This document shows positions 8,801 to 61,899 of a DNA stretch of 64,000 nt, piece by piece; position 1 is the stretch's first letter; each line of letters opens with the position of its first letter. The notes under the pieces were generated by a model. That model did no database searches. It saw only the letters and a list, made by a program, of their open reading frames with translations, and was not told where the DNA came from. The position numbers were made by a program, and so were the translations under genes. Origin of the DNA: a virus (taxonomy: Duplodnaviria; Heunggongvirae; Uroviricota; Caudoviricetes); the IMG/VR virus record IMGVR_UViG_3300028048_000105; one strand, 5' to 3'.

Positions 8801-8819
8801 CGCGCTACGGAAACATACC

Positions 8820-10085: not shown

Positions 10086-10191
10086 GAAAGGCTGCTCTCC
10101 TGCTGTACTCTTCTGGGGCTTTGGAAAGCTGGTATTGGAAAATTCTGCGTTGTTTTCTTAACAGAAGGGTTTTCTGTACGGAAGCTGGTTT

Positions 10192-10221
10192 CTAACTGAT
10201 CTGCACGCGAAGACGCGGCAG
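10192..10221 (+). repeat. IS200/IS605-type subterminal hairpin (LE), CTAACTGATCTGCACGCGAAGACGCGGCAG
   Basis: Imperfect palindrome CTGCACGCG-AAGA-CGCGGCAG; identical copy at 13284-13312 and inverted copy at 12652-12681. Confidence 0.55.
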
Positions 10222-10338
10222 AGGAAAGCGCCACCTACACCTACACTTCTTTTTATATCCATACATTCATTTCTTAAATATTTATAAATTCCCATTTTTA
10301 TAGTTTATAAACAATAGATTCAGTAGTATAATTCTATT

Positions 10339-10761
10339 ATGGAAAATAAAAGAGAAAACAATAAAAGTTATGAATATCATTCATCATCCCATTTAAAATA
10401 TTTATGCCGTTATCATGTGATCTTCTGTCCGAAATACAGAAGAAAGATCTTAGTTAATGGTATTGACGAACGGCTGAAAGAAGTGTTTACAGAAACAGCC
10501 AAAGAACACGACTTCAGCATCATAGAGATGGAAGTCATGCCGGATCATGTACATCTGCTTATTGACTGCAACCCCAGATATGGGATCATGCAGTGTATTA
10601 CAGACCTCAAGTATGGATCTGCACATGTACTCGGGCGGGAATTCCCGTCCATCCGGAAAAAGATCCCTTCCATTTGGACACGCAGCTGTTTTGTAGCAAC
10701 CGTAGGAAGTGTTTCCTTTGATGTTGTAAAACAGTACATAGAATCACAGAAAGGAAAATAA
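10339..10761 (+). CDS. tnpA: IS200/IS605 family transposase TnpA (Y1 HUH)
   Basis: HVHLLIDCNPRYG HuH motif; 140 aa; typical N-terminal YHV..P KYRR. Confidence 0.85.
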   Translation: MENKRENNKSYEYHSSSHLKYLCRYHVIFCPKYRRKILVNGIDERLKEVFTETAKEHDFSIIEMEVMPDHVHLLIDCNPRYGIMQCITDLKYGSAHVLGREFPSIRKKIPSIWTRSCFVATVGSVSFDVVKQYIESQKGK

Positions 10762-10764
10762 ACC

Positions 10765-41653: not shown

Positions 41654-43063
41654 TTACCGAGAGGAATCGCCCAGTGGAGTCCTTTTGTAACTATACCGGT
41701 AGCCATCGCCGTACTGCTTAAGCTTGCAGTTTTTGTAATTAACGGTTATGCGTTCACCTTCTGTTGTTTTTATATCAAAGTATCCACTTGCTCTTGTTGA
41801 TACGCGACCGGTATGTTTTCCTTTATATTTTCCTTTGGGTACATCTGCCGTTACGATATCTCCGTTCTGGAAACCGAAGATACGTTTTGGCGTTTTCCCC
41901 AGCTTTTGTATGATGATTCCGCATTTATTGATCTTCCCACGGAAATGGGTGCCTCTTCCCATCGCTTCTGCATACAGGAAGTAGCCGTTTGTAAGGTCTT
42001 TAAATCCTTTTTTTGGTACGGTACCGACACACAACGCATCATAATGGTGGTCTTTCGGAAGGTTTAACTTTGTACGGTTGTATTTCGTCTTCCCGCCTGT
42101 GGAACACTCCACGTCATCAAAGATTGCAAACAGCCCATTCTCTTCATACCGGCGCAGGATGCCAGCCCATGCACTGTAGCGGTTACTGTTCTTCTGCACC
42201 TTGCCATTCATGACAGCCTTGATGCCTTTTAACCTCGCCTTGTCAAGCTTCGTTTTCTTAGGCTTTACATTGATGGACTCCAGCCATTCTTCCAGCTTCA
42301 TGGAACCTTTTTCCTGATTACAGGTATGGCAGGAAAGGGTGGCATTTTTTACACTGTCACTTCCTCCTCTGGAACGTGGGATGACATGCTCCCACTCCAT
42401 GATGCTGTCATTGGATTCCCCGCCGCAGTACTGGCAGGTATGGGCGTACTTTTCCAGAAGGTATTCACGGATCTCTGTACCCGCAAGGGTTCCCTGCTGG
42501 TACTGGACACCTTCGATATCCGGGTTATCCATCAGCTGGGAATCAAACCTTACTGCCTCGAAAGAACAGTCTGTGATGTTAAAGAGCTGCTTTAACCTTA
42601 TGACCCATGAGATGACGTTATCACCGATGGAACGCTGGGATGGTGGAAGCCATCCGTCAGGACGGGAACTGTCATACTGCGGTTTCTTCCCTTCCGGGAG
42701 CTGTTTGTTTCCCCACTTCGGCCTGCGATAGCGGGTCTCCCGGTTCCTGCGGTTCCTCCTGCACTGGCTTCTTGTCTGCAGGTTCTTTTTTACCTGATCC
42801 CCGCGGTGCTCAATCTGCTGAAAGAATACCACGGCGTTGTCCTCATTCCTTACTACGGCAATCCCTGTATACTTTGCACCCGGGTCGATCTTGACCCGGT
42901 AGGTACCTTCCGGTTTGATTTCCCTTGTGTCTTTATCCTTTAAGATGATCACAAACGGAAAGGTTTTGTATACGCATGCCCGCTTCTTTTCCAACAGAAT
43001 GCGTGCCCTCCGCTCAGTGCAGACACCAAGGGGACGCTTTCTTTTATCAAGTGTTATGACCAT
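41654..43063 (-). CDS. iscB: IscB (OMEGA RuvC-HNH RNA-guided nuclease)
   Basis: PLMP N-term MVITLDKRKRPLGVC, RuvC-I IDPGAKYTGIAV, bridge helix RRNRRNRETRYRR, HNH CQYCG..HVIPRSRGG..N..SCHTCN, C-terminal TI-like domain. Confidence 0.85.
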   Translation of the reverse strand: MVITLDKRKRPLGVCTERRARILLEKKRACVYKTFPFVIILKDKDTREIKPEGTYRVKIDPGAKYTGIAVVRNEDNAVVFFQQIEHRGDQVKKNLQTRSQCRRNRRNRETRYRRPKWGNKQLPEGKKPQYDSSRPDGWLPPSQRSIGDNVISWVIRLKQLFNITDCSFEAVRFDSQLMDNPDIEGVQYQQGTLAGTEIREYLLEKYAHTCQYCGGESNDSIMEWEHVIPRSRGGSDSVKNATLSCHTCNQEKGSMKLEEWLESINVKPKKTKLDKARLKGIKAVMNGKVQKNSNRYSAWAGILRRYEENGLFAIFDDVECSTGGKTKYNRTKLNLPKDHHYDALCVGTVPKKGFKDLTNGYFLYAEAMGRGTHFRGKINKCGIIIQKLGKTPKRIFGFQNGDIVTADVPKGKYKGKHTGRVSTRASGYFDIKTTEGERITVNYKNCKLKQYGDGYRYSYKRTPLGDSSR

Positions 43064-43335
43064 AGTTACTGTCTCCTTAAAAATCCAGTTACGGACTTGT
43101 ACTGCGGCTGGCACCACGATGGTGCTGTGGTAGCCAGCTGCTTCTTCTCGTTAATGTTGAGAATGGGTTACGCGGGCAGCGCACTGTCCGGTGTCTCGGA
43201 CCTGACGACTTAGCAACCGCCCATCGGCTTTCATGCTGAAGAAGCACATACCGCCGCCTCCATCCTAACGTAGTCCCGAAGGACTGAAACTGCTCAACCA
43301 TCTATCGGACAGCTTCGCATGCTCTCGCATGCTCG
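43064..43335 (-). ncRNA. candidate IscB ωRNA #2
   Basis: Structured 270-nt region 5' of iscB, begins right after a truncated module B. Confidence 0.5.
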
Positions 43336-44705: not shown

Positions 44706-46625
44706 TTAAATGAGTTCTTTTGCCTTGAGATCTTCGATCATGTCATGGATTGCTGCATTGATCGCTTTGCGCTCTTCTCCACGCGGCATCGCATAAACAG
44801 GATTAAGGTTTTTATCCATGCCTACACAGCTTTCTGAGTGCCCGGATAAGTAATCGCTCTTGGCGCCCTTGGCTTTCAGCATATCGGTCAGGTAGCATGC
44901 ACCAGCGCGGGCAAACATCTCAACGGTGGATGACCAGTATCCAAACTTGTCTTTGGCAGTGCAGTCATCCATCTTTTTGGATTCCTTGTAGTATTCCGAT
45001 AACATCTGCATGTCATTATAGGAAGCAGTCACAGCCCTTTCGTATCTGTACCAGGTCCAGAACAGATCTTTTCTGGATTCCTTATTGATCACACGCCCAG
45101 TCACTTCTTTTTTGTAGGAAGAAAGTGCCTCGATTGCAGCTGTTGCCGTTCCATCAATGGATATAAGATGCTCCTCTTTATCTGCGAAGATATTCCTTAC
45201 CAGTTCCGCTCTCTTTTTGACCTGCGCATCTGTAAGACCGTCTGCCGGGAAAACAGAATCGATACATTTCTGAAGAAGTTTTTCTGTATTCCCGATTTTC
45301 TTTGCCTTCTCAGCTTCGATCTCTTCTTTTGTCGCCTTGCGGTACTGCATGGTAGAAATCACATTTCGCACGCTCTCCGGGATTTTATCTTTCTCAAATG
45401 ATTCTGTCATCATCTTAGTTAATCCCAGTTTTTTCGCTACAATGTCATCAAGCGCATGAAACATTTCATGACCGAGTGACCCGGCCCCTTTCATCTTCGT
45501 AATATTAATTACCTCACGAAGCGGCTCGTAATGTGCAACTGCGGAACCCTGTCCTCTTGCACCGAAAGCGATCGCAAGACGGCCTCCAAAAGACACAGAA
45601 GATAACGGGATGCCAAGGACATCTGCAAAGTCACAGAATGCTTCATATGCCATGTTCAGGCTTGACTGAGCATCATTTTCCGTCATCCAGTTTCCGAACT
45701 CTCCGCCACGGATATTGAAATCTTTAAGGAAATCTTCTCCTACGATATCCCGTCCATTCCGGACATCAGAAAGGCCAATACGCTCAATTCGTTTAAGCTG
45801 CTTTGGAGTTGCGGAAGCCTTACGCGGTTTCTTTGCTCTAAGCTGCTTTGCGTATTCCTGACACTTACAAAGAGCCTCCTCATAACTTGGAATATTCTTT
45901 TCAATCACGGAATACCCTTTGGAAACGATGTAAGTGTCTTTGATACATCCAACTCGGCTGCGGCTGTAAAAACCATCCGGGGAATATTTTTCAATCTTCC
46001 ATCCGGCAGGTATCTTATCTTCTTTCTTCACAGCAAACTGTTCTTTTTCTGCACAGTATGCGTAGTTAGTAGAGAAAGTCTGATGACCACAGCGGATCGC
46101 ACGCAAAAGCTTTGTCTGGAACAATCCGGTATATTCCGGTTTGGTAGAGATTCTGTACCGTGCGCTACGCTCCGGATCAACAATCTGATTGTAAACAACC
46201 TGCTGTTTCTCCATAAACTCTTCTTCAGAAGAAACACCCGACATGGTATCCCTGATCATGGTCACGAATTTGACGTAACACTCCATCCGGTATTTCACCT
46301 TCTCTGGATCGTCCTGCTCGAAATACGAAACATATGGCTTTGCTGGAATTGCATTGCGCACCTCTTTGATCGCGTAAGCGACTACCTTCGGAACGCCAGC
46401 TTCGACCATCTGCTCATAATCCGGTTTCTTCCAGATATTGTCTTTCTTTACGAATTTTGCTTTCTCAGCATCATTCATATCCAAAAGATCCTCAAGATTG
46501 ATGCCTCCAGCTGACCAGAGTTCCTTTCTCGCGCCTCCGATATGTTCTCCAAAATCTCTGGAAACCTTAAGTGCCGATGTTCCGGATACCTCCGGTGTAT
46601 TGAATAAACTCATCTGTCCTTCCAT
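44706..46625 (-). CDS. large protein with zincin-like HExxH motif (ArdC/ImmA-like metallopeptidase domain?)
   Basis: GSLGHEMFHALDD; 639 aa; module B upstream. Confidence 0.5.
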   Translation of the reverse strand: MEGQMSLFNTPEVSGTSALKVSRDFGEHIGGARKELWSAGGINLEDLLDMNDAEKAKFVKKDNIWKKPDYEQMVEAGVPKVVAYAIKEVRNAIPAKPYVSYFEQDDPEKVKYRMECYVKFVTMIRDTMSGVSSEEEFMEKQQVVYNQIVDPERSARYRISTKPEYTGLFQTKLLRAIRCGHQTFSTNYAYCAEKEQFAVKKEDKIPAGWKIEKYSPDGFYSRSRVGCIKDTYIVSKGYSVIEKNIPSYEEALCKCQEYAKQLRAKKPRKASATPKQLKRIERIGLSDVRNGRDIVGEDFLKDFNIRGGEFGNWMTENDAQSSLNMAYEAFCDFADVLGIPLSSVSFGGRLAIAFGARGQGSAVAHYEPLREVINITKMKGAGSLGHEMFHALDDIVAKKLGLTKMMTESFEKDKIPESVRNVISTMQYRKATKEEIEAEKAKKIGNTEKLLQKCIDSVFPADGLTDAQVKKRAELVRNIFADKEEHLISIDGTATAAIEALSSYKKEVTGRVINKESRKDLFWTWYRYERAVTASYNDMQMLSEYYKESKKMDDCTAKDKFGYWSSTVEMFARAGACYLTDMLKAKGAKSDYLSGHSESCVGMDKNLNPVYAMPRGEERKAINAAIHDMIEDLKAKELI

Positions 46626-47914: not shown

Positions 47915-48895
47915 TCACAAATTTTTTTGTTTTGAGTTATAAAATTGTGGCGAAAACCACAGGTTTTCCTGTGGGAATTAGTGAGTTTTCCTTAAATTGC
48001 TATATTCACAGATGCGTAAAATACGCTCTGATTCTTGAACGGTTCGGGTAACCCCTGCCCCACATATCCCAGTAATTTTCTCCCGCTTTCCTTGCACATG
48101 CAATGCTTGAAACATGAGATTTTCTGTCCATCTTACGCTTCTTGGAATACGAAAACAGGACTTTCTCTCCGTTTCCATACCGGTATAGATTTTCCCGCTG
48201 TTTCTTTATTTTCCTCCCTTTCCCTCTCATCCTCTTTTTACACATACGAATTTTCCTTTCGAACGAATGCCTATTTATGTTTTTCTAATACAAATATTGC
48301 GCCATTTGGGGAATCGTCAAAGGGATTCGGGGAAAATTTATAAAAAAAGAGAGGGAAAATTTTCCTCTCTCTCATGCGAAATTTGGATAGCCTAGAAGAA
48401 CATAAGGCACAGTGGAAGCACAAAGATTGCATATAGGACCACCGTCGCAGCCATGATCGATATACATTTTGCCTTGAAAATTTTAACGTCATGAAGGAAT
48501 GCGCCTGATGATGGGTACAGCTTCTTAACCTGGCCCGTAAATATTGACGATTCCTCTCCAGGTGCGGCAATATCAGCGAATAAATTCCATTTAGTAATTC
48601 TTGAATATTCACTACTCTCAAATGACCACCCCCATATGCCAAACAAGCGTGGAAGACCGCATGAAAAATCGTGAGGATGTTTTGTTTCTCTCAGAAAACA
48701 TTTCTTTTCTTCCGGGTATCCGAAAAAAGTGGTTGAATATCACTAATTCGGATACCTTTTCTTATGTCTGTTTGGTCGCAAAAAGTGGTTGAAAAGTATG
48801 GGCGATTGTAGCAAATATACCCGATAAAAATTGTAATTAAAAAGAGCCGCTTGTTATGACGGCTCTGGTTGAAAAATCTGAAATATTTACTGTGT

Positions 48896-50284
48896 CTAAA
48901 AATCATCATCCTGGTTGAAATCATCATCTGGTTCTGGAAACGGCTCATAGTCATCCTCGTCATCGTCGTCCTCATATTCTTTCGCACTGTCAAAGCGGAA
49001 TACAGGCTGATCTTCGGGAATGATAGGACCGACTTCAACAAGTCCATTTTCAAGTATTGCTCTAAGATTTGCGTTTCTGTACAGTGTCCTTGCTCTCAAC
49101 ACTTCAAAAGAATATCCTCTGCCACGCAGATTGTTTTCACGGATAAGTCTGTTCATACATTCTGTATATCCATTTGATATAGCAATCGGGCAGTCCCAAT
49201 AGGCAAATATCTGCTCATAAAAATTATGAACCGTACCTGAAAGTTCTCTGAATTTATCGTATAGTTTATCTTCAGGAATGGACTTTTCCCATTCTTCAAA
49301 AGCTTTCTGGGCGTTATCCTTTGAGGATGGATTTTTATCATAAATATTGAAAAAATCTTCCTTAAGATCAAATGCTATGGCAAGTGGCTCTGTGTCCGGG
49401 TTGTTCCTTGCTGCTTTTATCTTTGCCGCTTCTTCCGGATCAAGGTCATCAAGCCTGGTCTTGAGTGTATATGCAAGTCCCCGCTTAGTCTTAATGCGGT
49501 CTTTTTTAGTCATATCCTTCTGTATTTCACGCCTTACCGCATCAACAGCCTCATTTGCCTTCATAACTACGTGAAAGTGATCAATAGCCCACCTTGCATT
49601 AGGCATTGCATCCCCGATACTCTTCTCAAAAGGCCTGTACATGTCAGAGCACACCCACTTTACTTTTTCCCTGTCACGCAGTTCCATGAAATATTCTGTT
49701 AGGGATTTTTGATTTCTTCCCTGAAGGATATCATACAGTGTACGATGTTCTATGTCCGTAATGACTGTCAGCTCACCAAGTTTTTTGACTTTAATCTCGT
49801 CAATTCCTATAAACTCAGGAGTCCTAAACCGGAGATTTAGCTTGTTATCATTTAGAAAGTCTACAAATACATTTTTTACAGTATTAGCTGACAGAACAAA
49901 ATCCAGTGAAGCATCTTCAAAGGTGGTGCGCATTGAATGTTCTGTAAGGCTCATAAGCGCCCTGCGGGTCATCATGTGGTTTTCGTCAACATTGTATAGA
50001 TCTGGCTTCCAGACGTGTTTTTCACCTTCATTACGACATCTTTTACGAGGAATCTCAATATCAAGCACAACAGGACATCCCTGTAGTGGGGTATCATTTA
50101 CCTGTATCCGCCTTGAACCATGCTTATACATAGGACTGCCACATACCGGGCATATATCAGGGATTCCTCCGCTGTATTTTAGAGATATAACTTTGTAATG
50201 CTTTTTTTTGTCATACTTATCTTCAATGCTCTCAATATCATAGTCCTTGATACCAAGGAGCATTAAAGCCATGTTATTAGCCAT
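48896..50284 (-). CDS. ISL3-family transposase with acidic C-terminal tail
   Basis: N-terminal zf (CPVCGSP..C..C), DDE_Tnp_ISL3-like core; 462 aa. Confidence 0.75.
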   Translation of the reverse strand: MANNMALMLLGIKDYDIESIEDKYDKKKHYKVISLKYSGGIPDICPVCGSPMYKHGSRRIQVNDTPLQGCPVVLDIEIPRKRCRNEGEKHVWKPDLYNVDENHMMTRRALMSLTEHSMRTTFEDASLDFVLSANTVKNVFVDFLNDNKLNLRFRTPEFIGIDEIKVKKLGELTVITDIEHRTLYDILQGRNQKSLTEYFMELRDREKVKWVCSDMYRPFEKSIGDAMPNARWAIDHFHVVMKANEAVDAVRREIQKDMTKKDRIKTKRGLAYTLKTRLDDLDPEEAAKIKAARNNPDTEPLAIAFDLKEDFFNIYDKNPSSKDNAQKAFEEWEKSIPEDKLYDKFRELSGTVHNFYEQIFAYWDCPIAISNGYTECMNRLIRENNLRGRGYSFEVLRARTLYRNANLRAILENGLVEVGPIIPEDQPVFRFDSAKEYEDDDDEDDYEPFPEPDDDFNQDDDF

Positions 50285-50287
50285 ATT

Positions 50288-53200
50288 TTACTCCTTGTTG
50301 TGTGTGAACTCTGATATTTCCTCGATATCAAGATGCTTCTTCTTGTTTACAAGGTCATATATGAGCTCTGCAATAGGCCTGATTGCCTGCGGATCATCGA
50401 GGATCTGCGTGGCAAGCTGTCCAAGCTCATTGTTCTTAAGCGACAGGGCAGCGACCTTGATGATATTTTCAAGCCTTCCGTCAGCGATAATGGCTTCCTT
50501 GCTGTTTGTTGAGTTTCTTATCTGGATACGGCTTACGTCATCAGCTGATACTGAATCCACAATGGCATTGACCGCTCTTGCGCCTTCAACAGCAGGAACA
50601 TCTTCACCAAATGCTTCATTCAGCTTTTCTACAATTTCTTTCAGAGATGATCTCTTTTTCTTTGAGGTGCCGGAACCCGAGCCCATAGGACGAAGGATTG
50701 CCGGATCATCGTCACCGCCGGGAAGAGGTCTGTCTACTTCGCTTATGCGGTAATCGGACAGTACAAGGCTTGAAATATCAATCTCTTCAAGGGCTGTTCC
50801 GTCAAGCCTCTTTAATAGCAGCTTTGCGAAGCCATAGAAAATCTCAAGTTCAGGCTCACCAAGGTCTACTATCTGCGAAATAAAGGTATAGGAGGAACAG
50901 TATTTCTTAAGGTCTTTCTTGAAATCAAGAAGTTTTTCCTGTTCTTTTCCAATCTCTTCCAGTTTAGTTTCTGCCTGTGCCAGAAGATCGTTATTGCCCG
51001 TTCTCTTTGCTTCTTCCTTATTGGAACTCCATGTGGCAAAGGAGTTATGGTTAGCCTTGTAAGCATTGTTCCATCTCTCGGCAGGGGCAGATACAGCCTG
51101 ATACAGTTTCTTCCTGTATGCGTCCTTTACGGATGCAGAAATAGCGTCTATGGACTTGTAACGGACATCCCGATAAATATTTATCTCATCCTGTGTATAG
51201 ACATCACGTTCATCAAGACGCTTCTTTGTGTCATATACGATTTCAAGTTTCTGGGCATGTTCCATATGTGCGCCGCGGTCATACTTATTAAAGGCTCTTT
51301 CCACGGTCTCAGGATCATTTACGAAGTCCACCACGAATACGTGATCTTTTCCTGAGAATGTACGGTTAAGACGGGAATAGGTCTGCACGATCTCGATGTC
51401 GTTACAGAGCTTCTTGTCAATGTACATAGCGCAGAGCTTTGGCTGGTTAAAGCCCGTCTGGAACTTGTCACACACGATCATGATGCGATTTTCAGGCTTG
51501 TCAAAGGCAACTTCCACCTTCTGATAACCGATATTGTTGGAATTCTCTTCCGTGTAGTCATAGTCCCTGCGGATGGCAGCAAAAGGATTCTCCTTAAGGT
51601 ACTCAAACTCCGTGATTGTGTTCTCGTCCTCATCTGTGATAGCCATAGCGCCATTTACCTTGCCGGAGAATGCCACAAGGGGTTCGCCCGGTACCTGAAA
51701 ACGGATGGCATCTTTTACCTTTTCCCTGTCATATTCAGGGTGTGCGTTAAGATACGCTTCAATAGCATACTTATAGCGGATAACAGCGGGACGGGACGAT
51801 GCTACGATCATTGCCTTTGCCTGTCCGCCAAGCATCATGGAGACATTCTTTATGAAATGCTCGATGATAAACTGTGTTTTTTGCATTACATTGGTAGGAT
51901 GCAATGACTCCCACATGGCGATGGTTCGCATTGCAGCATGTTCATCCACAAGTTTGTCCGACACGATATCCTCTTTCAGCTTATATGCGGTCTTGTAAGG
52001 TATATAACCCTGTAAAACGTCAAGGATGTAACCTTCCTCAATAGCCTGTCTCATAGGATACAGATCAAATGATTCGGGAATAGGCCTGCCGGTCTTTTCA
52101 TCAATTTTATCAGAGTCACGCCCGAATAATGTCTTTGTTTCGGGTTTTGGAGTAGCGGTATAAGCAAAGAATGATACGTTCTCAGGCCATGTGCGGTCCC
52201 CCTGCTCATTCTTGAAATAGGCAAGTATCATTTCTTCATCAGTTACAGCAGCGTCAGGATCGCCAGTTTCCTTGGATTTGTCTTTTGACGCAAGTTTAAG
52301 GGCAGCTTTCATTTTTCCTGCAAACTGTCCCGTCTGGGAAGAATGTGCCTCGTCGATAAGAACAGCAAAGTTAGCGCCTTCGAGCATATCATCAGATGCT
52401 ATCTCTTCAAGGGCAAACGGGAATGTTTGGAGGGTAACAACAATGATCTCCCGTCTGTCATGTAGAGCTTTTGCGAGCTGTTTGTTCTTCGCTCCCTGCG
52501 AACGGGTACCCTCGTCACCACCGATCATTTCAATAAGGCCGGGAGTCTTTTTGAGCTGCTTTATCGTGCCCTTGATGTTGGAATCAAGCCCTACACGGTC
52601 TGTAACAACGATTACCGAAGAAAATACCTTTTCTCCGTCAGGCTTTCTGATATTGATAAGCTCATGGGCAGTCCATGAGATCGTCTCCGTCTTTCCAGAG
52701 CCTGCGGAATGCTCTATGAGGTAGCGTCTGCCAACACCGTTATCCTTTACATCGTTAAGGCACTTTGTAACACAGTTCCACTGATGAAAGCGTGGGAAAA
52801 GCTGTGTACGGACTTCCTTGAGCCTTCCCGTGGCATCTTCCTTCTTTGATACGCTCTCAAAGATGAAATCATGAAAAATGCGGAGCCAGTTTTCCTTCTG
52901 GCATATCTCGTTCCAGAAATAGCCTGTAGGATAATCATCAGCGCCATCTTTCATTGGATCATTGCCTGCGTGACCGTCAGAGGTCCCCTTGTTGAACGGA
53001 AGAAAATGCGGTTCATCCGGTTCAAGGTTGGTGCACATCCAGATCTCATCCTCTGAAATAGCAAAATGAACGACAGCACCACGTTTGTACATCAGAAGAG
53101 GGTTCTTTCTTCTTGTGCCGGGTTCAATAGGCTTTCTTTGGGTCTGATATTCTTCAATAGCATCCTGCACTGTCTGGGTAAGCTCTGTCTTTATTTCAGC

Positions 53201-53668
53201 AGTAGCAACAGGAATGCCATTGATGAAGAATACAAGGTCAAGCGATTTATTTCCTGCGGTCTGATAGTGTACCTGGTGCATCACCCTGAGAATATTAGCA
53301 TTATATTTCTGCTTGATATTGGGAATACGGGTATCGTCAGGGTAATGGCCTGAACACTCAATGGTCTGATAGCCCGCCATTACAAAACCGTTACGAAGTG
53401 TCTGCACGGTTCCGTCAACTTCAAGAGAATTGATAAGTGCCTTTTCAAGGTTTCCTTTCCAATTTGTTCCAAATCCTTTCTGCATCTTTTCGATCTTATC
53501 AGGTGATATGGCAGTAACATAGTCAATAAAATCATCAAGAACAAGAGCAGTATTAGCATCAAAACCTGCGTCATTCTTGCTGATCTGCCAGCCATTTTTT
53601 GACAGTTCTTCGAGCTTACGGCTGATATAGTGCTCAAAGTTTGTTTCCAGTCTGATGTCTTCAGGCAT
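50288..53668 (-). CDS. hsdR: Type I restriction enzyme R subunit HsdR
   Basis: SF2 helicase motifs SAGSGKT, DEAH (LIDEAHSS); 1126 aa. Confidence 0.85.
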   Translation of the reverse strand: MPEDIRLETNFEHYISRKLEELSKNGWQISKNDAGFDANTALVLDDFIDYVTAISPDKIEKMQKGFGTNWKGNLEKALINSLEVDGTVQTLRNGFVMAGYQTIECSGHYPDDTRIPNIKQKYNANILRVMHQVHYQTAGNKSLDLVFFINGIPVATAEIKTELTQTVQDAIEEYQTQRKPIEPGTRRKNPLLMYKRGAVVHFAISEDEIWMCTNLEPDEPHFLPFNKGTSDGHAGNDPMKDGADDYPTGYFWNEICQKENWLRIFHDFIFESVSKKEDATGRLKEVRTQLFPRFHQWNCVTKCLNDVKDNGVGRRYLIEHSAGSGKTETISWTAHELINIRKPDGEKVFSSVIVVTDRVGLDSNIKGTIKQLKKTPGLIEMIGGDEGTRSQGAKNKQLAKALHDRREIIVVTLQTFPFALEEIASDDMLEGANFAVLIDEAHSSQTGQFAGKMKAALKLASKDKSKETGDPDAAVTDEEMILAYFKNEQGDRTWPENVSFFAYTATPKPETKTLFGRDSDKIDEKTGRPIPESFDLYPMRQAIEEGYILDVLQGYIPYKTAYKLKEDIVSDKLVDEHAAMRTIAMWESLHPTNVMQKTQFIIEHFIKNVSMMLGGQAKAMIVASSRPAVIRYKYAIEAYLNAHPEYDREKVKDAIRFQVPGEPLVAFSGKVNGAMAITDEDENTITEFEYLKENPFAAIRRDYDYTEENSNNIGYQKVEVAFDKPENRIMIVCDKFQTGFNQPKLCAMYIDKKLCNDIEIVQTYSRLNRTFSGKDHVFVVDFVNDPETVERAFNKYDRGAHMEHAQKLEIVYDTKKRLDERDVYTQDEINIYRDVRYKSIDAISASVKDAYRKKLYQAVSAPAERWNNAYKANHNSFATWSSNKEEAKRTGNNDLLAQAETKLEEIGKEQEKLLDFKKDLKKYCSSYTFISQIVDLGEPELEIFYGFAKLLLKRLDGTALEEIDISSLVLSDYRISEVDRPLPGGDDDPAILRPMGSGSGTSKKKRSSLKEIVEKLNEAFGEDVPAVEGARAVNAIVDSVSADDVSRIQIRNSTNSKEAIIADGRLENIIKVAALSLKNNELGQLATQILDDPQAIRPIAELIYDLVNKKKHLDIEEISEFTHNKE

Positions 53669-53682
53669 TTTTATATCCTCCT

Positions 53683-55065
53683 TTATCTGAGATAATAGGC
53701 AGCCTGTCTGCCAAGATTAAGTGTAAGTGCTTCTTCAAATCCTCTTGATACATCACTCTGTCTGCTCGAAGCATGAGTACATTCATGTATCAGGGTTCCT
53801 GCAAAGGCTTCAATAGATGAAAGCTGAGAGCGCTTTATCCATACAATGCCTTTCTTTGCATCCCATAATCCGAGTGTCTGTGATTTCTGTTCATCAGAGT
53901 ACAGCTCCTCAGATATTTTTATGCTTGAAACAACGCCCGGTAGTCCGCCCATGAAAGCTAATATTTCGGGCATTTTGTTGTAAACGTCCTGCTCGGCTTT
54001 TGTAAGCGCAGATATATCTATTGCGTCACCAGAGAAGGATTCGTTTTTCTTCTGGTTGTATTTTCCTATTGTTGTTACACTTCGGATGGAAGTAGCTTTT
54101 TCTTTGAGCTTGTCAGGAATGATAAATACCTGGTATCCGTCATCCTGAGCATCGGATATCTCCATGCGCCGATTCACCGCTTCCTCGCCCGTAACAAACA
54201 GAAGCTTGTTATTGATGCGGGATAGCTGTTCTATAACATACATCTGAACATCAATCCAGTTCATTTCATCGTGTCCGCCGCCCTTTACGACCATTTCAAG
54301 GTCTTTCATAAGAGATTTAAGAACATCCTCATTTTCGGCGCTTTTAACGATATTTTTAACGGAATCTGTATAAGCAGCACGACCCACGTTATCACGCTCC
54401 CTGTTAAGAGCTTTTCGGAGTTTTGTCGGGAGGTTTGTGATGTTGTAGGAATAGAGGAAATTGCTTTCCTCAGCTACTTTTACGCCATGGATATAGATGT
54501 TTGCAGGCTTACGAAGTGGTTTATCAAGTATCTGCCCGAAACCTGTGGATTCCAATACTATTTCATCTGAAAAGCACAGGAACAGCCTCTTTGCTGTTTC
54601 GATATCTTCATCACTACACCCCTCAAGAGAGAAGTCTGTACCGACCATTTCAGCGTCATCAGGATCAGATATCTCAGCATGAAGCGTAGTTACATCATCA
54701 AATCCTTCCTTCTGAAGCTGTTTAAGCCTAATAGTGCCATATTTTGAACGGATAACCACCTTTATGTCATGACGAAAGAACACCGCAAGGGAATCCTTTA
54801 AACCGACACCAAACTTACCGATAAGACCGTCTGCGGAGAGCTTTTCGTCATTCTCATTCTGCGTGAGATGATGATAATTAAGCCCCCTGCCATAGTCGGT
54901 AATATGCCAGATGCCATTTTCTTTATGGATACTGATATCAGCTGTTCTTGTCAGTTTCTGTTCATCGAGCGCATTTGCGATAACTTCTCTGACAGCATGG
55001 TAAACTTCCCAGTTTTCCAGTATCTTTTCTATATTGAGATCAAATTCTTTAACCATAGGTATCAA
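53683..55065 (-). CDS. GHKL (Bergerat-fold) ATPase fused to C-terminal HExxH region
   Basis: N-box EVIANALDE, G1 box DYGRGL, C-terminal LIHECTHA. Confidence 0.55.
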   Translation of the reverse strand: MIPMVKEFDLNIEKILENWEVYHAVREVIANALDEQKLTRTADISIHKENGIWHITDYGRGLNYHHLTQNENDEKLSADGLIGKFGVGLKDSLAVFFRHDIKVVIRSKYGTIRLKQLQKEGFDDVTTLHAEISDPDDAEMVGTDFSLEGCSDEDIETAKRLFLCFSDEIVLESTGFGQILDKPLRKPANIYIHGVKVAEESNFLYSYNITNLPTKLRKALNRERDNVGRAAYTDSVKNIVKSAENEDVLKSLMKDLEMVVKGGGHDEMNWIDVQMYVIEQLSRINNKLLFVTGEEAVNRRMEISDAQDDGYQVFIIPDKLKEKATSIRSVTTIGKYNQKKNESFSGDAIDISALTKAEQDVYNKMPEILAFMGGLPGVVSSIKISEELYSDEQKSQTLGLWDAKKGIVWIKRSQLSSIEAFAGTLIHECTHASSRQSDVSRGFEEALTLNLGRQAAYYLR

Positions 55066-55673
55066 AACACCTTCTGCATTCGTTGTAATGCTTCATCCCT
55101 GTTATCGCTATGGAACACTTCTTTATCAAATGTATCAAGCTGAACTTTCTTATATTCGTCAGCGTGATTGTAGTATTCAATAGCGTTACTGCATAGAGCA
55201 TAAATAAGGACACCCATATTAACAACAGGTCTGCCAAATTGCCATTTACCATCAACAAATGATTGTGATTGAATGGGATATTCAGCATTGGAATACGCCA
55301 TATCAAACAGATAATGTTCACCTTTCATATCACCTTCATGAGTGAGATTGTTTCTCAACCCGTAAAGTCTGTTTGCAAGATGCTCCATTCCGTCAGTATA
55401 CGCACTGTCTTGGGTCGGGCAGTTGTCCTTGCATACATTCATTTCTGAATTCAGATTATGACAATTCAAACAAGAGATAGTGGCCTCTATTGGGCATACG
55501 CCTTTCAGAAAATCTTTTGTCCATTGCTTATAGTGGTGTCCCACCCCTGTGTTTGGATATTCCACCTTGCCACATATATCAGGTAATGATATAGCAGCAG
55601 GAAGAACAACACGCCCAAACCCTTGCTTTCTCGCCTTTTCAATTTCTTCGCAATACTCTATGAAATGACTCAT
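55062..55673 (-). CDS. hypothetical Cys-rich protein, partner of the GHKL ATPase
   Basis: 203 aa, overlaps both neighbours by 4 nt. Confidence 0.45.
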   Translation of the reverse strand: MSHFIEYCEEIEKARKQGFGRVVLPAAISLPDICGKVEYPNTGVGHHYKQWTKDFLKGVCPIEATISCLNCHNLNSEMNVCKDNCPTQDSAYTDGMEHLANRLYGLRNNLTHEGDMKGEHYLFDMAYSNAEYPIQSQSFVDGKWQFGRPVVNMGVLIYALCSNAIEYYNHADEYKKVQLDTFDKEVFHSDNRDEALQRMQKVF

Positions 55674-56929
55674 ACAACCTCATTTCTGCAATCAATTTTG
55701 CCTGTAACAGCGTAGTAAATAAGGGATTTTTTGTATTCTTCCCATTTGTTTATAGCCTCTTGCTTTTTAGCAATAAGAGAATCAACAGAAGCGCATTTCT
55801 TATGAATGTAGTTCACAATATCCGTCTGTTCTTGCTCCGAAGGGACAAGCACATAAGTCCTAACAAAGTCCCAGTAATCAAGGCTTTGGCGCAAGCCACC
55901 ACCCATACTATAAAATACCTTTTCTATGTCATAGCAATGGAGCAGATAATGATAATATTCTGAGTTCACACCTGCCTTGGGTTTTAATGTCATATATGCC
56001 GATGTGATGATGCCGCGTTCTTTTACAAGTCCGGTTCTAAGACTTCTATGGTCATTTTGAAGATCCGTACCACGAATAACAATATCATCGGCTTCAACAA
56101 TGTTGTATCCGTCAAATGATTCCGGAAGAAGTCCCTCTTTGGTATCAATGTTTTTACGAATAATGTTTCCATAGCTGAGCGATAAAAGGTTCTTTTCCTG
56201 CAAATACTTATTTTTATTGAGTCTGCGAGAATAAAACTTGCGGAGCTGTTTAACCCCCCACATCTCCGGCACCTCACCAATCCACTCAACCCCCGAATCT
56301 TTCATCATCGTATCCGGATCAAGCCCCTTTGTCACAGCCTTTGTAATGACAGCCTTCTTGTATTCTTCCAGTTTCTCAATGGATTTCTTTGTCTTTTCGA
56401 TTGCTGTGTCGATGGCTGAGCACTTGCGGTCAAGGAAACTAGCAATCTGGCGCTGTTCATGTAATTCTGGGAATACAATATAAGAATTATTCATTATCCC
56501 CATGGTAATGAAGCCCATGGTTGTCTCATGGATTTCTGCTTTTAATGCTTCAGTAATGGTAGATAAATAATAAAAGGCAAATTTTTTATCAATGTTGTTT
56601 GAAAGAATTGCTTTCCAAATATGGTAGTGGAATATAACCTTATCCCCCGACCATATAAATGGTGCATACGACATAGACCAAGCATAAAGCAAGTCACCAT
56701 TACAACAGTATTTTTCAGGTTCCAATTCCAAACTTGATGTATACCATGTGGGATTTGTAAAAAGGTTTCCAACTCTTAATACTCGGTATTTCCCGTTTTC
56801 TTCAAACTCGGAATCTTTATACGCTCTTCCATTAAGAAGCTGTATTTCATATTTCTGTTTGCAACAATTCCAATCAGAAGGAATTTGACCTATCCATTTG
56901 ATTCCTGAATCTTTCAGCTCTCTGCTCAT
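55670..56929 (-). CDS. hsdS: Type I R-M specificity subunit HsdS (two TRDs)
   Basis: Two target-recognition repeats each beginning ..W.GQIPSDW / ..WIGEVPEMW; 419 aa. Confidence 0.8.
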   Translation of the reverse strand: MSRELKDSGIKWIGQIPSDWNCCKQKYEIQLLNGRAYKDSEFEENGKYRVLRVGNLFTNPTWYTSSLELEPEKYCCNGDLLYAWSMSYAPFIWSGDKVIFHYHIWKAILSNNIDKKFAFYYLSTITEALKAEIHETTMGFITMGIMNNSYIVFPELHEQRQIASFLDRKCSAIDTAIEKTKKSIEKLEEYKKAVITKAVTKGLDPDTMMKDSGVEWIGEVPEMWGVKQLRKFYSRRLNKNKYLQEKNLLSLSYGNIIRKNIDTKEGLLPESFDGYNIVEADDIVIRGTDLQNDHRSLRTGLVKERGIITSAYMTLKPKAGVNSEYYHYLLHCYDIEKVFYSMGGGLRQSLDYWDFVRTYVLVPSEQEQTDIVNYIHKKCASVDSLIAKKQEAINKWEEYKKSLIYYAVTGKIDCRNEVV

Positions 56930-58983
56930 ACAAACACTCCCTTCAGAGCCTCTTCAATCTCAGGCTCAAGAGCTTCCAGTTCTGCCATTATCTCTGCCGG
57001 ATCACGGGGAGCTTCATAATGGTAGAAGTATTTGTCAAAGGATATCTGCGTTCCGACAACGCCTGTCTTTTGGTCGCCCATTACTCCTGTATCAATAACA
57101 GTGTCATCAACCCATGCATCGGGCACGTAAGGATATACTTCTTTCTCCATGTATTCGTTGATGTCCTGCTCAAAAGGTACTTTTTCGACATCCTTAAGAT
57201 CAGGATCGGGTACGGGCTTGCCGTTCTTGTCGTAAACAATATCCTCATCATCCTCAGTCTTTACCCCAAATACCTTAATAAAGGCATCCTGAAGCTGCTT
57301 ATTTGTTATCTCGGGCTTATCAAGTTTATCCCTGAAATCAGATGAGTGACTGATGAACCAGTTATACTTAACAGTCTGACCGTCCATGGCTGCTACAGCA
57401 CGCTTTAATGTATCCTTGTTGGTCTCGGATAGTTTCTGCATAGCTTTTATCTCAAACAGTTCATCCCACTTTTCAAGGTCAAATGTAACCACCTGTTTAA
57501 GTGGTCTCTGTACAGTAACAGCACGGTACATGAACTCTTCAACAGGAAGAAGCTCTGACTTGCCGCCGTTATGTCCGTCAATATAGGTCTGGATGATCCA
57601 TTGCATTTTTGCATCCGGAATATCCTTACGCTTATTTCCAAGAGACTTCCTGCGAAGCTCGCCGCAATCAGAAGCATCAATGAGCTGTATCTTGCCTTTG
57701 CGGTTATCATCTTTCTTTGTGCTCAGAATCCACAGATAGGTGTTGATGCCAGTTCGGAAAAAGATATCCGTTGGAAGTTTTACTACGCAGTCAACGAGAT
57801 CGTTCCTAAAGAGCCATCTTCTTATATCAGAAGGGCCCGAACCTGCATCACCATTAAAGAGAGGAGATGCAGAAAGGACGATACCCGCCTTTGCGCCACC
57901 TTCTTCTTCAGTCTTCATGTGAGCGACCATATTCTGAATAAAGAGCATAGAGCCGTCGCTTATTGACGGAAGACCGGCTCCAAAGCGTCCTGCAAATCCA
58001 TGGTTCGCCTCGGCACGGACTTCCTCTGCCTCTTTTTCCCATTTTTTACCGTAAGGCGGATTTGAAACACAGTAGTCGAAGTGCATATCTTCGAATTGGT
58101 CGTCCGAAAGTGTATCAGCGTTCAGGATATGAGCTGACAAATCTTTTGTCTGATCGTATACATCTTTCTCCGTATCAGAAACATTTCTGATAAGAAGATT
58201 GGCCTTACCCATAGCCCATGTAACGCCGGATAGCTCCTGTCCGTAAGGGACAATGACAGCAGGAGCTTTCATCTGCTTGTTTTCATGCCATTCATTAAGA
58301 AGATCCAGAGCATCAGTAATAAACCCGCCTGTACCGCATGTCTGATCATAAAGAGTTCTTACGATACCTGTATCAGAGCTCATAAGCTCATCATCATTGG
58401 CAAAGATCATACCTATAGCGAGCCTTACAATATCCTTGGGGGTCATGAAATCTTCGGCGTCCTCAGCAATCTCATCGCCGTAACGCTGTATAAGGTGTTC
58501 ATATATATCCGACATATCCCTGTCGGTAACTGTATCTGAATCAAAGGGTAAAGCAGAGAACTTCTGACATACGGAATAGAGCATACCGTTATCATGCAGC
58601 TTCTTGCAGGTATTCTCCATTTCAAATTTAAGTAAGATATCACGGGCATTTGGTGAAAAGCCGTTGATATAAGAATCAAGAGCAGCGTAGGTATCTGATG
58701 CTCCGAGATTGTTAAGCCTGAATCCGGTCACGTTATAAAACGCCTTGCCGGAATACTGACAGTAGTTGTCGGACTCACGCCCCCAGTCATCCTCATGCTC
58801 TTCAAGTGCAGCACATACGGCAGCTCTTGTTGGTTCAAGAGCGCACTCAAGCCTTCTGAGAAGTGCAAAAGGCAGGACTACCTTGTTATAGTCTGCCCTG
58901 GATATTACATCCCTAACGTAGTCTGCGATGTTCCAAATCTCATTAACATAGTCCAGATTTGTTTTCTTTTGTTCTTCAGCCAT
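56926..58983 (-). CDS. hsdM: Type I R-M N6-adenine methyltransferase HsdM
   Basis: HsdM_N signature IWNIADYVRDVI, catalytic NPPYG, SAM-binding motifs; 685 aa. Confidence 0.85.
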   Translation of the reverse strand: MAEEQKKTNLDYVNEIWNIADYVRDVISRADYNKVVLPFALLRRLECALEPTRAAVCAALEEHEDDWGRESDNYCQYSGKAFYNVTGFRLNNLGASDTYAALDSYINGFSPNARDILLKFEMENTCKKLHDNGMLYSVCQKFSALPFDSDTVTDRDMSDIYEHLIQRYGDEIAEDAEDFMTPKDIVRLAIGMIFANDDELMSSDTGIVRTLYDQTCGTGGFITDALDLLNEWHENKQMKAPAVIVPYGQELSGVTWAMGKANLLIRNVSDTEKDVYDQTKDLSAHILNADTLSDDQFEDMHFDYCVSNPPYGKKWEKEAEEVRAEANHGFAGRFGAGLPSISDGSMLFIQNMVAHMKTEEEGGAKAGIVLSASPLFNGDAGSGPSDIRRWLFRNDLVDCVVKLPTDIFFRTGINTYLWILSTKKDDNRKGKIQLIDASDCGELRRKSLGNKRKDIPDAKMQWIIQTYIDGHNGGKSELLPVEEFMYRAVTVQRPLKQVVTFDLEKWDELFEIKAMQKLSETNKDTLKRAVAAMDGQTVKYNWFISHSSDFRDKLDKPEITNKQLQDAFIKVFGVKTEDDEDIVYDKNGKPVPDPDLKDVEKVPFEQDINEYMEKEVYPYVPDAWVDDTVIDTGVMGDQKTGVVGTQISFDKYFYHYEAPRDPAEIMAELEALEPEIEEALKGVFV

Positions 58984-59205
58984 TAGTTACTCCTTTATAT
59001 TAAATGTTATTTTCAACCACTTTTTGAGGAAACACCCCTATTAAAATATATCACACATACACGTACGTTTCAACCACTTTTTGAGGAAACACTACTTATA
59101 TTATGGTAATAAAAATAGCCAGGTAGAACAATGTCTACCTGACTATATGCTTTTGATATTTCAACCACAGAGGGTTATATATTTTGCTTATTCAGATATA
59201 GGTTT

Positions 59206-59652
59206 TCAACCACTTTTTGCGGTTAGCCTTTCTTCCATTGTATCACCTGGAACCATTCCGTATCCAACATCCTTACTGAAAGCTTTGTAATACTGTCCGA
59301 TACATTCACACAGCTTCTCAAAATTTTCAACACGGCATTTCTTCCCATCGTTAGCGAAATCATACTGTAATTCGTTACATTGATTACTTGCATTGACATA
59401 CTCTTCCGCAATCATATACATTTCCTTTAATTTCTTTGAAGCAAACCCGGCTTTGAAGACACCATGGTAAAATACCAGTACAGGTCCTGCAACCAACAGA
59501 ACAATTCCTACAAGATACAAAAATCCAAGCCCAATAACAAGAAACTCATATCCAACTGCCTGAAAATATTCAGCTGCTCCAGCCCCGGTCTTTCCGACAC
59601 TCGTCATCGCCTCCGTCGCATGCTGCAACAAATCAAGATACTTGTTTAACAT
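59206..59652 (-). CDS. membrane protein, hypothetical
   Basis: 148 aa with central hydrophobic helices. Confidence 0.4.
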   Translation of the reverse strand: MLNKYLDLLQHATEAMTSVGKTGAGAAEYFQAVGYEFLVIGLGFLYLVGIVLLVAGPVLVFYHGVFKAGFASKKLKEMYMIAEEYVNASNQCNELQYDFANDGKKCRVENFEKLCECIGQYYKAFSKDVGYGMVPGDTMEERLTAKSG

Positions 59653-60402: not shown

Positions 60403-61899
60403 TTATGCAAATTTCACTATTTTCCCATCCATGTTCAAGGCTTGTAACACATACTTTTTAACAAATTTTCCAATTGCCTGGGTTACACCGTTTCCAATCT
60501 GCTGTTGTTTCGCGTTTAAGGTTGATCCGAAAACTTTGAATTCCTTTGGGAGTCCCATAAGCGCTGCCGCCTCGGATACATTAAGAATACGGTTTTCCTC
60601 TGGATGTGTGAGGTTGATTTTCCTCCAGTTTACCAGGGTAGGCGACGGCTGATCCCATGCAAGGCGTTGGTAAATATCAGAGTGCGTTGCCGGTCCAAAT
60701 TTATGGATTTCCGGAGGAACATCTTTCCAGTTACCTCCCTGCGGAACGTAGCTCATTGTCAACCGGGTGGACTCTCTTGGGAGAGTCACATCGTCCCAGG
60801 TCAACCATGTACTATCCACGTCTTTTAATGCATCCCTTACGGTTTTTACCGTTTGAAATGTTACATCTGGGAGCACAATCTCGCCAATTCTGCTTCCGAT
60901 AACAATCGCTCTTTTCCGGGTTGTGTACCCGCCAACCGATGAATCACACACAACTTTCGTTGTAATCTTATACTCCGGGAGAAAATTAAATACCTTATTG
61001 ATATACATTCCGTGTTCCTTTGTAAGAAGCTGTGGTACATTTTCAATTACAAAGACCTTCGGCTGCTTACACTTGACGATCCGGATGTAATCTTCAATCA
61101 ACAGGCGTTTCTTTTCTGCATCCTCACTTTTCTCATTTCTTCTGTTTGCCGAAGAATACGCCTGGCAGCATGGGCCACCGATAACAACATCGGCGTCTGG
61201 CACGTCTTTTGCATCAACGTTCCTGATATCATCGCACATGATATGATTTCCGATATTATTCCGGTACGTTTCACATGCATCCTTATCGAAATCGATGCCA
61301 TATACAAATCGGAACTGCGGATCTTTAAACGCATAATCTAAAAGACCTGCCCCGGAGAAAAGAGAAACAACATCATATACTTTCTGGATCTCTTTTCTTG
61401 CCTTTCTGGAAACTGTTCCAGAAGAAGCGCTACCCTTACAGTTACTGCCACAAAGATACAAAAAATACGCATCATCGCTTAATGTTGGCTTGCCAAAAAG
61501 TTTCTGCGGATAATTCGATCCCACCGCACAATCCAGAACAATTTCTCCAGTGTATCGTCCAATAACATCCTCAATTTTTACAAGATTACTCCGATGGATG
61601 ATTTCCTTTTCTGAAACCTTCTTGATTGTATGAACAACAATCTTATTTTTGCAGACCTCAACTTCCAGGTAGTCACACGCACAAACGATTTTTCGAACTT
61701 CCTTTGAACGGATATCGAAAAGTGGCTTGTAAGCATTGCCGGATTTCTTTCTGCTCACCGTCATATTTCCGTTTTTGTCCGGAATAATAAGGATTTCCTT
61801 ATTTGCCTTATCGACAATATACCGGTACTTTTCTCCGATACCAAACAGCTTTTCCCTGATTGAGAATGTAAGTCCTCTTTTTAATCTCTTTATTTTCAT
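60403..61899 (-). CDS. dcm: DNA (cytosine-5)-methyltransferase with N-terminal extension
   Basis: Motif I FSGAGLLDYAF, motif IV PCCQAYS, motif VI ENVPQL; module B upstream. Confidence 0.8.
   Translation of the reverse strand: MKIKRLKRGLTFSIREKLFGIGEKYRYIVDKANKEILIIPDKNGNMTVSRKKSGNAYKPLFDIRSKEVRKIVCACDYLEVEVCKNKIVVHTIKKVSEKEIIHRSNLVKIEDVIGRYTGEIVLDCAVGSNYPQKLFGKPTLSDDAYFLYLCGSNCKGSASSGTVSRKARKEIQKVYDVVSLFSGAGLLDYAFKDPQFRFVYGIDFDKDACETYRNNIGNHIMCDDIRNVDAKDVPDADVVIGGPCCQAYSSANRRNEKSEDAEKKRLLIEDYIRIVKCKQPKVFVIENVPQLLTKEHGMYINKVFNFLPEYKITTKVVCDSSVGGYTTRKRAIVIGSRIGEIVLPDVTFQTVKTVRDALKDVDSTWLTWDDVTLPRESTRLTMSYVPQGGNWKDVPPEIHKFGPATHSDIYQRLAWDQPSPTLVNWRKINLTHPEENRILNVSEAAALMGLPKEFKVFGSTLNAKQQQIGNGVTQAIGKFVKKYVLQALNMDGKIVKFA

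Follow-up and report, generated by a model that had tools for sequence, protein, structure and literature searches.

Genes embedded in Type I restriction–modification (R-M) operons are enriched for defence functions (Payne et al., bioRxiv 10.1101/2024.01.29.577857); TgvAB is a precedent. PrrC of the prr locus, which lies between hsdS and hsdR and is almost exclusively R-M-embedded (same source), joins an ABC ATPase in one polypeptide to a nuclease that is a HEPN domain (PMC3710099). GHKL ATPases fused to HEPN domains and embedded in R-M operons have been put forward as counterparts of PrrC (PMC3710099), and VcSduA, a GHKL-nuclease, is proven to act against phages and needs its ATPase glutamate to do so (PMC12137116). 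Insertion sequences (IS) of the ISL3 family can carry passenger genes, as ISPst2 does (PMC6305408). The locus described here resembles each of these in part. It lies in a 64,000-nucleotide (nt) stretch of the virus record IMGVR_UViG_3300028048_000105—'the window', in what follows—and it is an ISL3-family transposon that carries a complete Type I R-M system and, embedded between hsdS and hsdR, two guest genes, for proteins of 203 and 460 amino acids (aa). A preliminary description of the window had singled out the pair and its prrC-like position; that the whole operon is ISL3 cargo, and that one of the guests fills a hypervariable slot, were both absent from it.

The transposon runs from 48714 to 59228 and measures 10,515 bp (Table 1). 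Inverted repeats mark its ends, a target-site duplication flanks them, and when 48714-59236 is removed in silico an uninterrupted 245-aa open reading frame (ORF) reappears, rejoining a truncated 148-aa ORF (59206-59652) to its remainder. The gene so interrupted (59206-59652 plus 48392-48713, minus strand) encodes a predicted membrane protein with no Pfam match. Sister elements in other contigs keep the same inverted repeats, and five of them (L091, L098, L101, L105 and L106) are flanked by perfect 8-bp duplications, each different: CTTTTTAG, GTAATTAA, GAATATCC, AAAAAAAA and AAATATTT. With the window, these make six independent insertions. The transposase gene starts 3 nt past the hsdR stop codon, a junction common to every sister locus that reaches that far. 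That the ISL3 gene might be a chance neighbour is ruled out by this conserved junction of 3–4 nt, by the inverted repeats and by the target duplications.

The repeats and 8-bp duplication follow the conventions listed for ISPst2 and ISArsp7, and the ISPst2 repeat, GGGTATCCGGAATTTCTGGTTGAT, resembles the terminal repeat of this element (PMC6305408). As in other ISL3 elements with passengers, DDE_Tnp_ISL3 is combined with a Zn-ribbon in the transposase, the 24-bp repeats start with GG(G/C)TA, the duplications are 8 bp long, and the passenger genes lie upstream of the transposase. ISPst2 has two small passenger genes, however, whereas the present element has a five-gene cargo (~9 kb) comprising a whole Type I R-M system and two guests; it differs from ISL3 passenger elements, too, in its extra subterminal copies of the repeat core, CAAAAAGTGGTTGAA. 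The core occurs five times in the window, against 0.45 expected, and three of the copies are subterminal or internal. One internal copy overlaps the best promoter-like site upstream of hsdM (59073-59045; 10/12 match, with a TG-extended -10), and judging from this layout the transposase may bind the internal copies and so influence transcription of the operon. A literature search found no description of a whole Type I R-M system as the cargo of an ISL3 element. The kinds of component, on the other hand, are all known: embedded defence genes, GHKL conflict ATPases, HEPN abortive-infection nucleases and ISL3 passengers.

Pfam and PADLOC matches make the identities of hsdM, hsdS and hsdR solid. 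The order hsdM-hsdS-203 aa-460 aa-hsdR, as first reported, is borne out by the ORFs and is identical in 26 further loci, and the arrangement is therefore not due to chance. Every ORF is full length compared with its homologs, and so none is pseudogenised. Overlaps of 4 nt, which had been noted, are found between hsdM and hsdS and between hsdS and the 203-aa gene. The next junction has one only if the 460-aa gene starts with TTG at 55065. An alternative start, ATG at 55056, is preceded by AAGGTG, lies 5 nt past the stop of the 203-aa gene and yields a protein of 457 aa, as in the homologs; on this basis it is likely to be the true start. Before hsdR, which has a GGAGG ribosome-binding site, there is no overlap at all, but a 14-nt gap.

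Table 1. Features of the transposon in the window, and occupants of the variable slot across the clade (coordinates of slot genes are those of the sister locus named)
Feature	Position	Strand	Remarks
Target-site duplication TTTCTTCC, transposase end	48706-48713	.	8 bp, perfect direct repeat
Terminal inverted repeat GGGTATCCGAAAAAAGTGGTTGAA	48714-48737	+	24 nt, transposase end
Repeat-core CAAAAAGTGGTTGAA copies	48723-48737, 48779-48793, 59012-59026, 59069-59083, 59205-59219		two at transposase end, three at hsdM end
Terminator-like stem-loop	48843-48866	-	after transposase gene
ISL3-family DDE transposase	48896-50284	-	462 aa; DDE_Tnp_ISL3 3e-50; Zn_ribbon_ISL3 5e-8
hsdR	50288-53668	-	1126 aa; restriction/translocase subunit; D...ExK and DEAH motifs; HSDR_N/SWI2_SNF2/T1R_D3
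460-aa ORF	53683-55065	-	GHKL ATPase (~1-210), helical middle, C-terminal zincin-like domain; Pfam MPN635_N
203-aa ORF	55062-55673	-	HEPN-like, Cys-rich insert; fills variable slot
hsdS	55670-56929	-	419 aa; specificity subunit; Methylase_S 4e-25
hsdM	56926-58983	-	685 aa; Type I N6-adenine methyltransferase subunit; NPPYG motif; N6_Mtase 3e-49; PADLOC MTase_I 6e-206
Terminal inverted repeat GGCTAACCGCAAAAAGTGGTTGAA	59205-59228	-	24 nt, hsdM end; minus-strand reading; kept in sister elements
Target-site duplication TTTCTTCC, hsdM end	59229-59236	.	8 bp; identical to 48706-48713
Slot family, 203-209 aa, HEPN-like	6 loci including the window		L102 has the gene; contig ends inside GHKL gene
Slot family, 221-224 aa	8 loci (e.g. 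L005 7343-8008)		Nuc_deoxyrib_tr 33 bits, above threshold; weak PADLOC TIR-effector match
Slot family, 248-256 aa	5 loci (e.g. L090 1965-2735)		Zn-ribbon and DUF4145 (a HEPN family), the latter at 30 bits, above threshold
Slot family, 289-304 aa	4 loci (e.g. L010 9112-10026)		N-terminal transmembrane helix
Slot family, 188 aa	2 loci (e.g. L103 6136-6702)		no assigned family
Slot family, 197 aa	1 locus (L115 966-1559)		Zn-ribbon-like

With the window, the clade comprises 27 elements, 20 of them added by a metagenome scan, and the gene order is the same wherever the sister contig extends far enough. Compared with the window, HsdM is 78–89% identical, the 460-aa protein 76–79%, HsdR 84–87% and the transposase 77–84%; the gene for the 460-aa protein has co-diverged with the backbone of the transposon. 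Two parts of the element behave otherwise. HsdS is hypervariable, at 26–72% identity to the window and 31–72% between sister elements, and the slot between hsdS and the 460-aa gene is filled, among the 26 sister loci, by at least six families unrelated to one another; elsewhere the element is 76–89% identical (Table 1). The 203-aa protein of the window was tried as a divergent homolog of the 221-aa slot protein of L005, and of the 197-aa protein of L115, and BLASTP found no similarity in either case. The slot is recombination-prone and hypervariable, then, and several of its occupants have toxin- or effector-type domains. It is never empty: in 27 of the 27 elements it holds a gene that abuts or overlaps the start of its GHKL neighbour. 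We could not find an earlier description of such a hypervariable effector slot. The closest sister element, L115, in which the 460-aa protein is 89% identical, has Type I-E CRISPR genes (Cse1, Cas7-like; 8625-11939) about 1 kb past its transposase, and so sits in or next to a defence locus.

The 460-aa protein carries all four GHKL motifs of the Bergerat fold: ExxxNxxD (E27/N31/D34), DxGxG (D57/G59/G61), GxxGxG (G83/G86/G88) and GT (G142/T143). They are invariant in an alignment of 40 family members of 43–91% identity, as are H427, E428 and H431 of the HECTH sequence (residues 427–431), and the proposal that a GHKL ATPase is joined here to an HExxH domain holds up well. D438, R441 and E444 are likewise invariant, D438 and E444 being candidates for the third zinc ligand; the third-ligand histidine spacing of Wss1 and SprT is absent. 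By its motifs, then, the protein is a GHKL (Bergerat-fold) ATPase that has its catalytic residues intact and a MutL/ParE/MORC-like extension, and that ends in a zincin-like HExxH domain—'GHKL-zincin', for short. Formal matches are faint. Pfam HATPase_c scores 21.3 bits (E 4e-4) against a gathering cut-off of 26.4 and so falls below threshold, as do the sacsin ATP-binding domain (8e-5) and HATPase_c_3 (0.019). The profile of the family finds only weak motif-I matches to GyrB in the PDB, where phmmer matches neither guest protein. Precomputed annotation labels the family PF25856 (MPN635_N), and its name at NCBI is 'ATP-binding protein'. At least 4,490 homologs belong to it, out of 8,000 candidates scored. 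Variants include a protein of 772 aa with its GHKL part tandemly duplicated (P0023), one of 531 aa with a C-terminal fusion to an RNA-polymerase-alpha-CTD-like domain (P0037, PF03118), and the much longer ORFs L017 1877-4516 and L056 8343-11774, of 879 and 1143 aa. A full-text literature search found no description of this architecture as a defence candidate, and met the name 'MPN635' only in an unrelated context.

The preliminary description suggested an effector that is MORC-like or protease-based and recommended comparison with paraMORCs. The resemblance to this group of GHKL proteins from R-M neighbourhoods (Iyer et al. 2008), which includes the GHKL-Ymh(HEPN) fusions (Anantharaman et al. 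2013) and VcSduA, a paraMORC3 (PMC12137116), is real but general: an N-terminal GHKL domain with intact motifs, a middle domain and an effector-type C-terminal domain, in proteins that are sporadic and laterally mobile in Bacteria and Archaea and are tied to R-M systems and nucleases. 'MORC-like' is apt only at the level of the GHKL superfamily, however, since HATPase_c_3 is not significant and none of the C-terminal features of paraMORC1–5 is present. Where these have a MORC motif, ExxxH in S5 (paraMORC2), a restriction endonuclease domain (paraMORC3), TIR (paraMORC4) or HxH (paraMORC5), or a HEPN domain in the fusions, the protein described here has an HExxH zincin, and it belongs to none of the five paraMORC families. 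The paraMORC-like system with HEF_HK and Response_reg_2 (PMC8011034) was also considered as an identity; no match to those Pfam models was found.

The 203-aa protein, for its part, is probably a HEPN-type RNase. It has no match in Pfam, NCBIfam, PADLOC or the PDB, and close homologs fall in only seven clusters; an exhaustive profile search brings in 148 distant relatives of 160–250 aa, ten of which were scanned against Pfam with no significant match. In 34 sequences with identities as low as 22%, the invariant residues are just M1, D32, R107 and H112, D32 in the context L-P-D-I-C-G and the latter two in Y-x-L-R-N-x-x-x-H-x-G, which in the window reads R107-N-N-L-T-H112. The cysteines that earned the protein its first description as Cys-rich (C60, C68, C71, C81 and C85) are indeed invariant, among close homologs only, and belong to a lineage-specific insert. 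An AlphaFold2 model is helical (predicted local distance difference test 87, predicted template-modelling score 0.84), with R107-H112 at the end of a long helix (86–113) and the insert at about 40–85. In HEPN domains, according to a survey of the superfamily (PMC3710099), helix 3 ends in R-x4-6-H, the arginine being followed by a polar residue; helix 2 has an acidic residue, and an insert separates it from helix 3. The 203-aa protein has this motif and this layout. Foldseek found nothing significant for the model in the PDB, the best TM-score and probability going to AbiV, which is of the HEPN family, and the family profile has a weak match (E 0.23) in an ApeA-like antiviral HEPN protein, at its R-N-x3-H region. 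The possibility that the family is a divergent form of DUF4145 was examined with hhalign against the DUF4145 slot family, and was negative. If it is a HEPN-type RNase, we infer that the enzyme in the window is metal-independent and has a Zn-ribbon-like insert.

Outside the hsd clade, the 203-aa protein has its closest relative (~40% identity; L088 7001-7609) in a 112-kb contig, amid many small ORFs in succession that all point the same way and lack Pfam matches, and these surroundings look phage-like. The family was also tried as a general partner of GHKL-zincin proteins; hmmsearch of all fetched loci finds it in the hsd clade only, and beside no GHKL-zincin gene outside that clade.

A pattern-based scan for GHKL-zincin genes was made of one genome per species (185,579 species genomes). 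It confirmed 259 loci, distributed from Firmicutes to Asgard archaea at 45–53% identity, and the best 80 of the 259 were examined. Three of the 80 are hsd-embedded (L008–L010): they form a clade of ~79% identity with the order hsdM-hsdS-X-GHKL-hsdR-ISL3. For the other loci among the best 80, phmmer (E <1e-5) finds no homolog of these Hsd proteins in the surrounding 10 kb. Where it is not solo, the GHKL-zincin gene outside the clade comes after a gene of the same direction, and this upstream gene is tightly coupled in ~17 of the ~62 informative loci without hsd genes. Upstream or adjacent partners are often nucleases, and include SbcCD-like pairs, an Mrr_cat fusion, Endonuc_Holl pairs, RmuC and a RAMP protein; GIY-YIG is among the neighbouring nucleases as well, and wider neighbourhoods contain OLD/TOPRIM, AAA_21 (AbiEii type), RhuM, UvrD, resolvases and IS elements. 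In seven loci, mostly of Bacteroidota (L029, L032, L035, L036, L037, L040 and L063), a conserved helical protein of ~166–185 aa, for which there is no Pfam match, overlaps the GHKL-zincin start; this is a second stable two-gene arrangement. In L116 (7039-11430), a GHKL-zincin gene whose product is 63% identical lies directly downstream of parA-parB; next come a staphylococcal-nuclease-like gene and two PAPS-reductase-like genes, and so this copy sits in a mobile-element maintenance region.

What might the two guests do? We infer that they are defence add-ons, because defence functions are over-represented among genes embedded in Type I R-M operons, because GHKL-HEPN fusions are predicted to be PrrC analogues, and because a GHKL-nuclease is anti-phage. 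The reading we prefer, to which we would give a little less than an even chance, is that the pair is an embedded, modular add-on of two components, in which a GHKL clamp controls the zincin and this licenses the effector encoded upstream. It would serve as a second line of defence, of the abortive-infection type, carried along with the R-M system. Its GHKL module would act as an ATP-driven, dimerising clamp or switch that senses some cue of infection and controls the zincin domain; the zincin domain, in turn, would either release or activate the neighbouring toxic effector, or itself cleave a target of the host or phage. The effectors would be an RNase in the window, and NADase-like, membrane or other proteins in the sister elements. 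The module would be autonomous and not kept masked by the R-M complex, since elsewhere the family does without Hsd proteins, and co-transcription with the hsd genes would provide layered immunity and aid persistence of the transposon. The pattern of a conserved NTPase beside a swappable effector is what favours a two-component scheme. In TgvAB of V. cholerae VPI-2, and in the candidates of Payne et al. 2024, a two-gene cassette likewise interrupts a canonical, active-looking hsd operon, but the proteins are unrelated—there is no DUF262/GmrSD here—and the upstream gene, in our case, is exchanged among sister elements. A bolder form of the idea is that GHKL-zincin is the conserved sensor and activator of an unrecognised, modular anti-phage system, an ATP-gated metalloprotease that licenses whichever toxic effector lies immediately upstream, be it a HEPN RNase, DUF4145, a deoxyribosyltransferase/TIR-like protein, a membrane protein or a nuclease; we consider this possible, but doubtful. 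In the same bolder form, ISL3 would spread the system along with Type I R-M, and exchange of cassettes would diversify hsdS and the effector slot.

Several observations weigh against a two-component system. Neither guest matches a Pfam peptidase or HEPN model, or any model of NCBIfam or of PADLOC v2, including its 2023 PDC and HEC candidate sets. An identity of 45–53% between Bacteria and Archaea is unusually high for a fast-evolving immune sensor. The GHKL-zincin gene stands alone in Ruminococcus bromii and on the three plasmids that were inspected, and two relatives of the 203-aa gene, one in a phage-like contig and one in a chromosomal contig, both outside R-M operons, have no GHKL-zincin gene beside them. 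Such solitary copies, and the confinement of the 203-aa family to a single lineage of GHKL-zincin neighbours, would suit a different arrangement, in which the element carries two independent single-gene defence cargos, the slot being a hotspot for autonomous genes of the abortive-infection type; DUF4145 and other HEPN proteins are, after all, known as stand-alone or fused effectors. The GHKL-zincin protein would then be a self-contained, ATPase-gated protease, comparable to Lit, or to VcSduA with a protease in place of the nuclease. Lit, from prophage e14, is a zinc metalloprotease that brings about abortive infection, and it has no ATPase domain; it shares with our protein an HExxH metalloprotease as proposed phage-triggered effector, and the two are not known to be homologous. 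We regard both this arrangement and its self-contained protease as somewhat unlikely. A slot gene against the GHKL start in every element of the clade is difficult to square with independence, and so are the tightly coupled upstream genes of the loci without hsd, including the ~170-aa partner in seven loci of Bacteroidota type.

Less plausible by a good deal is the model of the preliminary description, that the pair is a latent, PrrC-like effector, kept masked by physical contact with the Hsd complex until a phage inhibits the R-M enzyme. The pair does occupy the prrC slot, with translational coupling, a HEPN-like RNase is present, and the GHKL-HEPN fusions of other R-M operons have been proposed as PrrC analogues (PMC3710099). 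With PrrC and RloC the locus shares its position, the combination of an NTPase with a HEPN-type R-x4-6-H RNase, and a presumed abortive second line. If either guest is the counterpart of PrrC, however, it is not the GHKL protein, as had been suggested, but the 203-aa protein, which carries a HEPN-type R-x4-H like that of the PrrC nuclease. The pair contains no P-loop or ABC domain, and its ATPase is of the GHKL kind, on a separate protein that bears the zincin domain. A single Hsd complex would need to mask slot proteins of unrelated folds, and near-exclusive embedding in Type I R-M operons, the habit of PrrC, is not seen: among the 80 loci examined, the GHKL-zincin gene is hsd-embedded in just one transposon lineage. 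Since the family is mostly without homologs of these hsd genes nearby, and is solo on plasmids, dependence on Hsd proteins or masking by them is not indicated. What survives of the guarded-effector idea is its defensive character, to which the embedding and the toxin-like domains of the slot both point, rather than the guarding. Improbable, too, is a role in restriction control, in which the ATPase-protease would temper HsdR or adjacent nucleases and so allow a mobile R-M system to become established in an unmethylated host without killing it. In its favour, hsdR comes directly after the gene, the transposon that carries both has entered new genomes again and again, and elsewhere the family adjoins nucleases (Mrr_cat, SbcCD-like, Endonuc_Holl, RmuC and GIY-YIG). 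Restriction alleviation of EcoKI, by way of precedent, depends on proteolysis of HsdR by ClpXP. Most members have no homolog of these hsd genes nearby, though, many have no adjacent nuclease, and the toxin-like variable slot is left unexplained. It is most improbable, finally, that the protein has a housekeeping role, with no part in defence, in which a MutL-like ATPase with a Wss1/SprT-like protease clears DNA–protein crosslinks or stalled complexes. Strong conservation across the domains of life is what one might want of a repair enzyme, and the R. bromii copy is present on 724 contigs, but patchiness—259 pattern-confirmed hits in all the species genomes scanned—is not, nor are copies on plasmids, beside IS elements, after parAB and inside a transposon, and the Wss1/SprT histidine spacing is lacking. 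We return, then, to a two-component add-on as the preferred reading, and take the system, on its sequence features, to be a well-supported lead rather than a discovery.

The surroundings of the transposon deserve a word. Just outside it is a gene for a 498-aa C-5 cytosine DNA methyltransferase (60403-61899, minus strand; E 9e-46) that has an N-terminal extension of ~175 aa and no evident cognate endonuclease beside it. On the other side, between 38850 and 46625 (minus strand), are an SNF2-type helicase (38850-41153), an RRXRR-HNH protein (41654-43117) and a protein with an LPD1 'large polyvalent protein' domain (44706-46625), and these three genes point to a conjugative or other mobile element as the place where the transposon inserted.

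With six insertions to its credit, a complete Type I R-M system that moves as simple IS-type cargo is a clear example of how a restriction system and its add-on spread. Near-identical backbones joined to six different upstream genes amount to a natural experiment, one that can show whether the conserved protein and the variable ones cooperate. And a family that includes members in R. bromii, an abundant inhabitant of the human gut, and whose only annotation is 'ATP-binding protein', would acquire a role open to testing: that of an ATP-gated immune protease.

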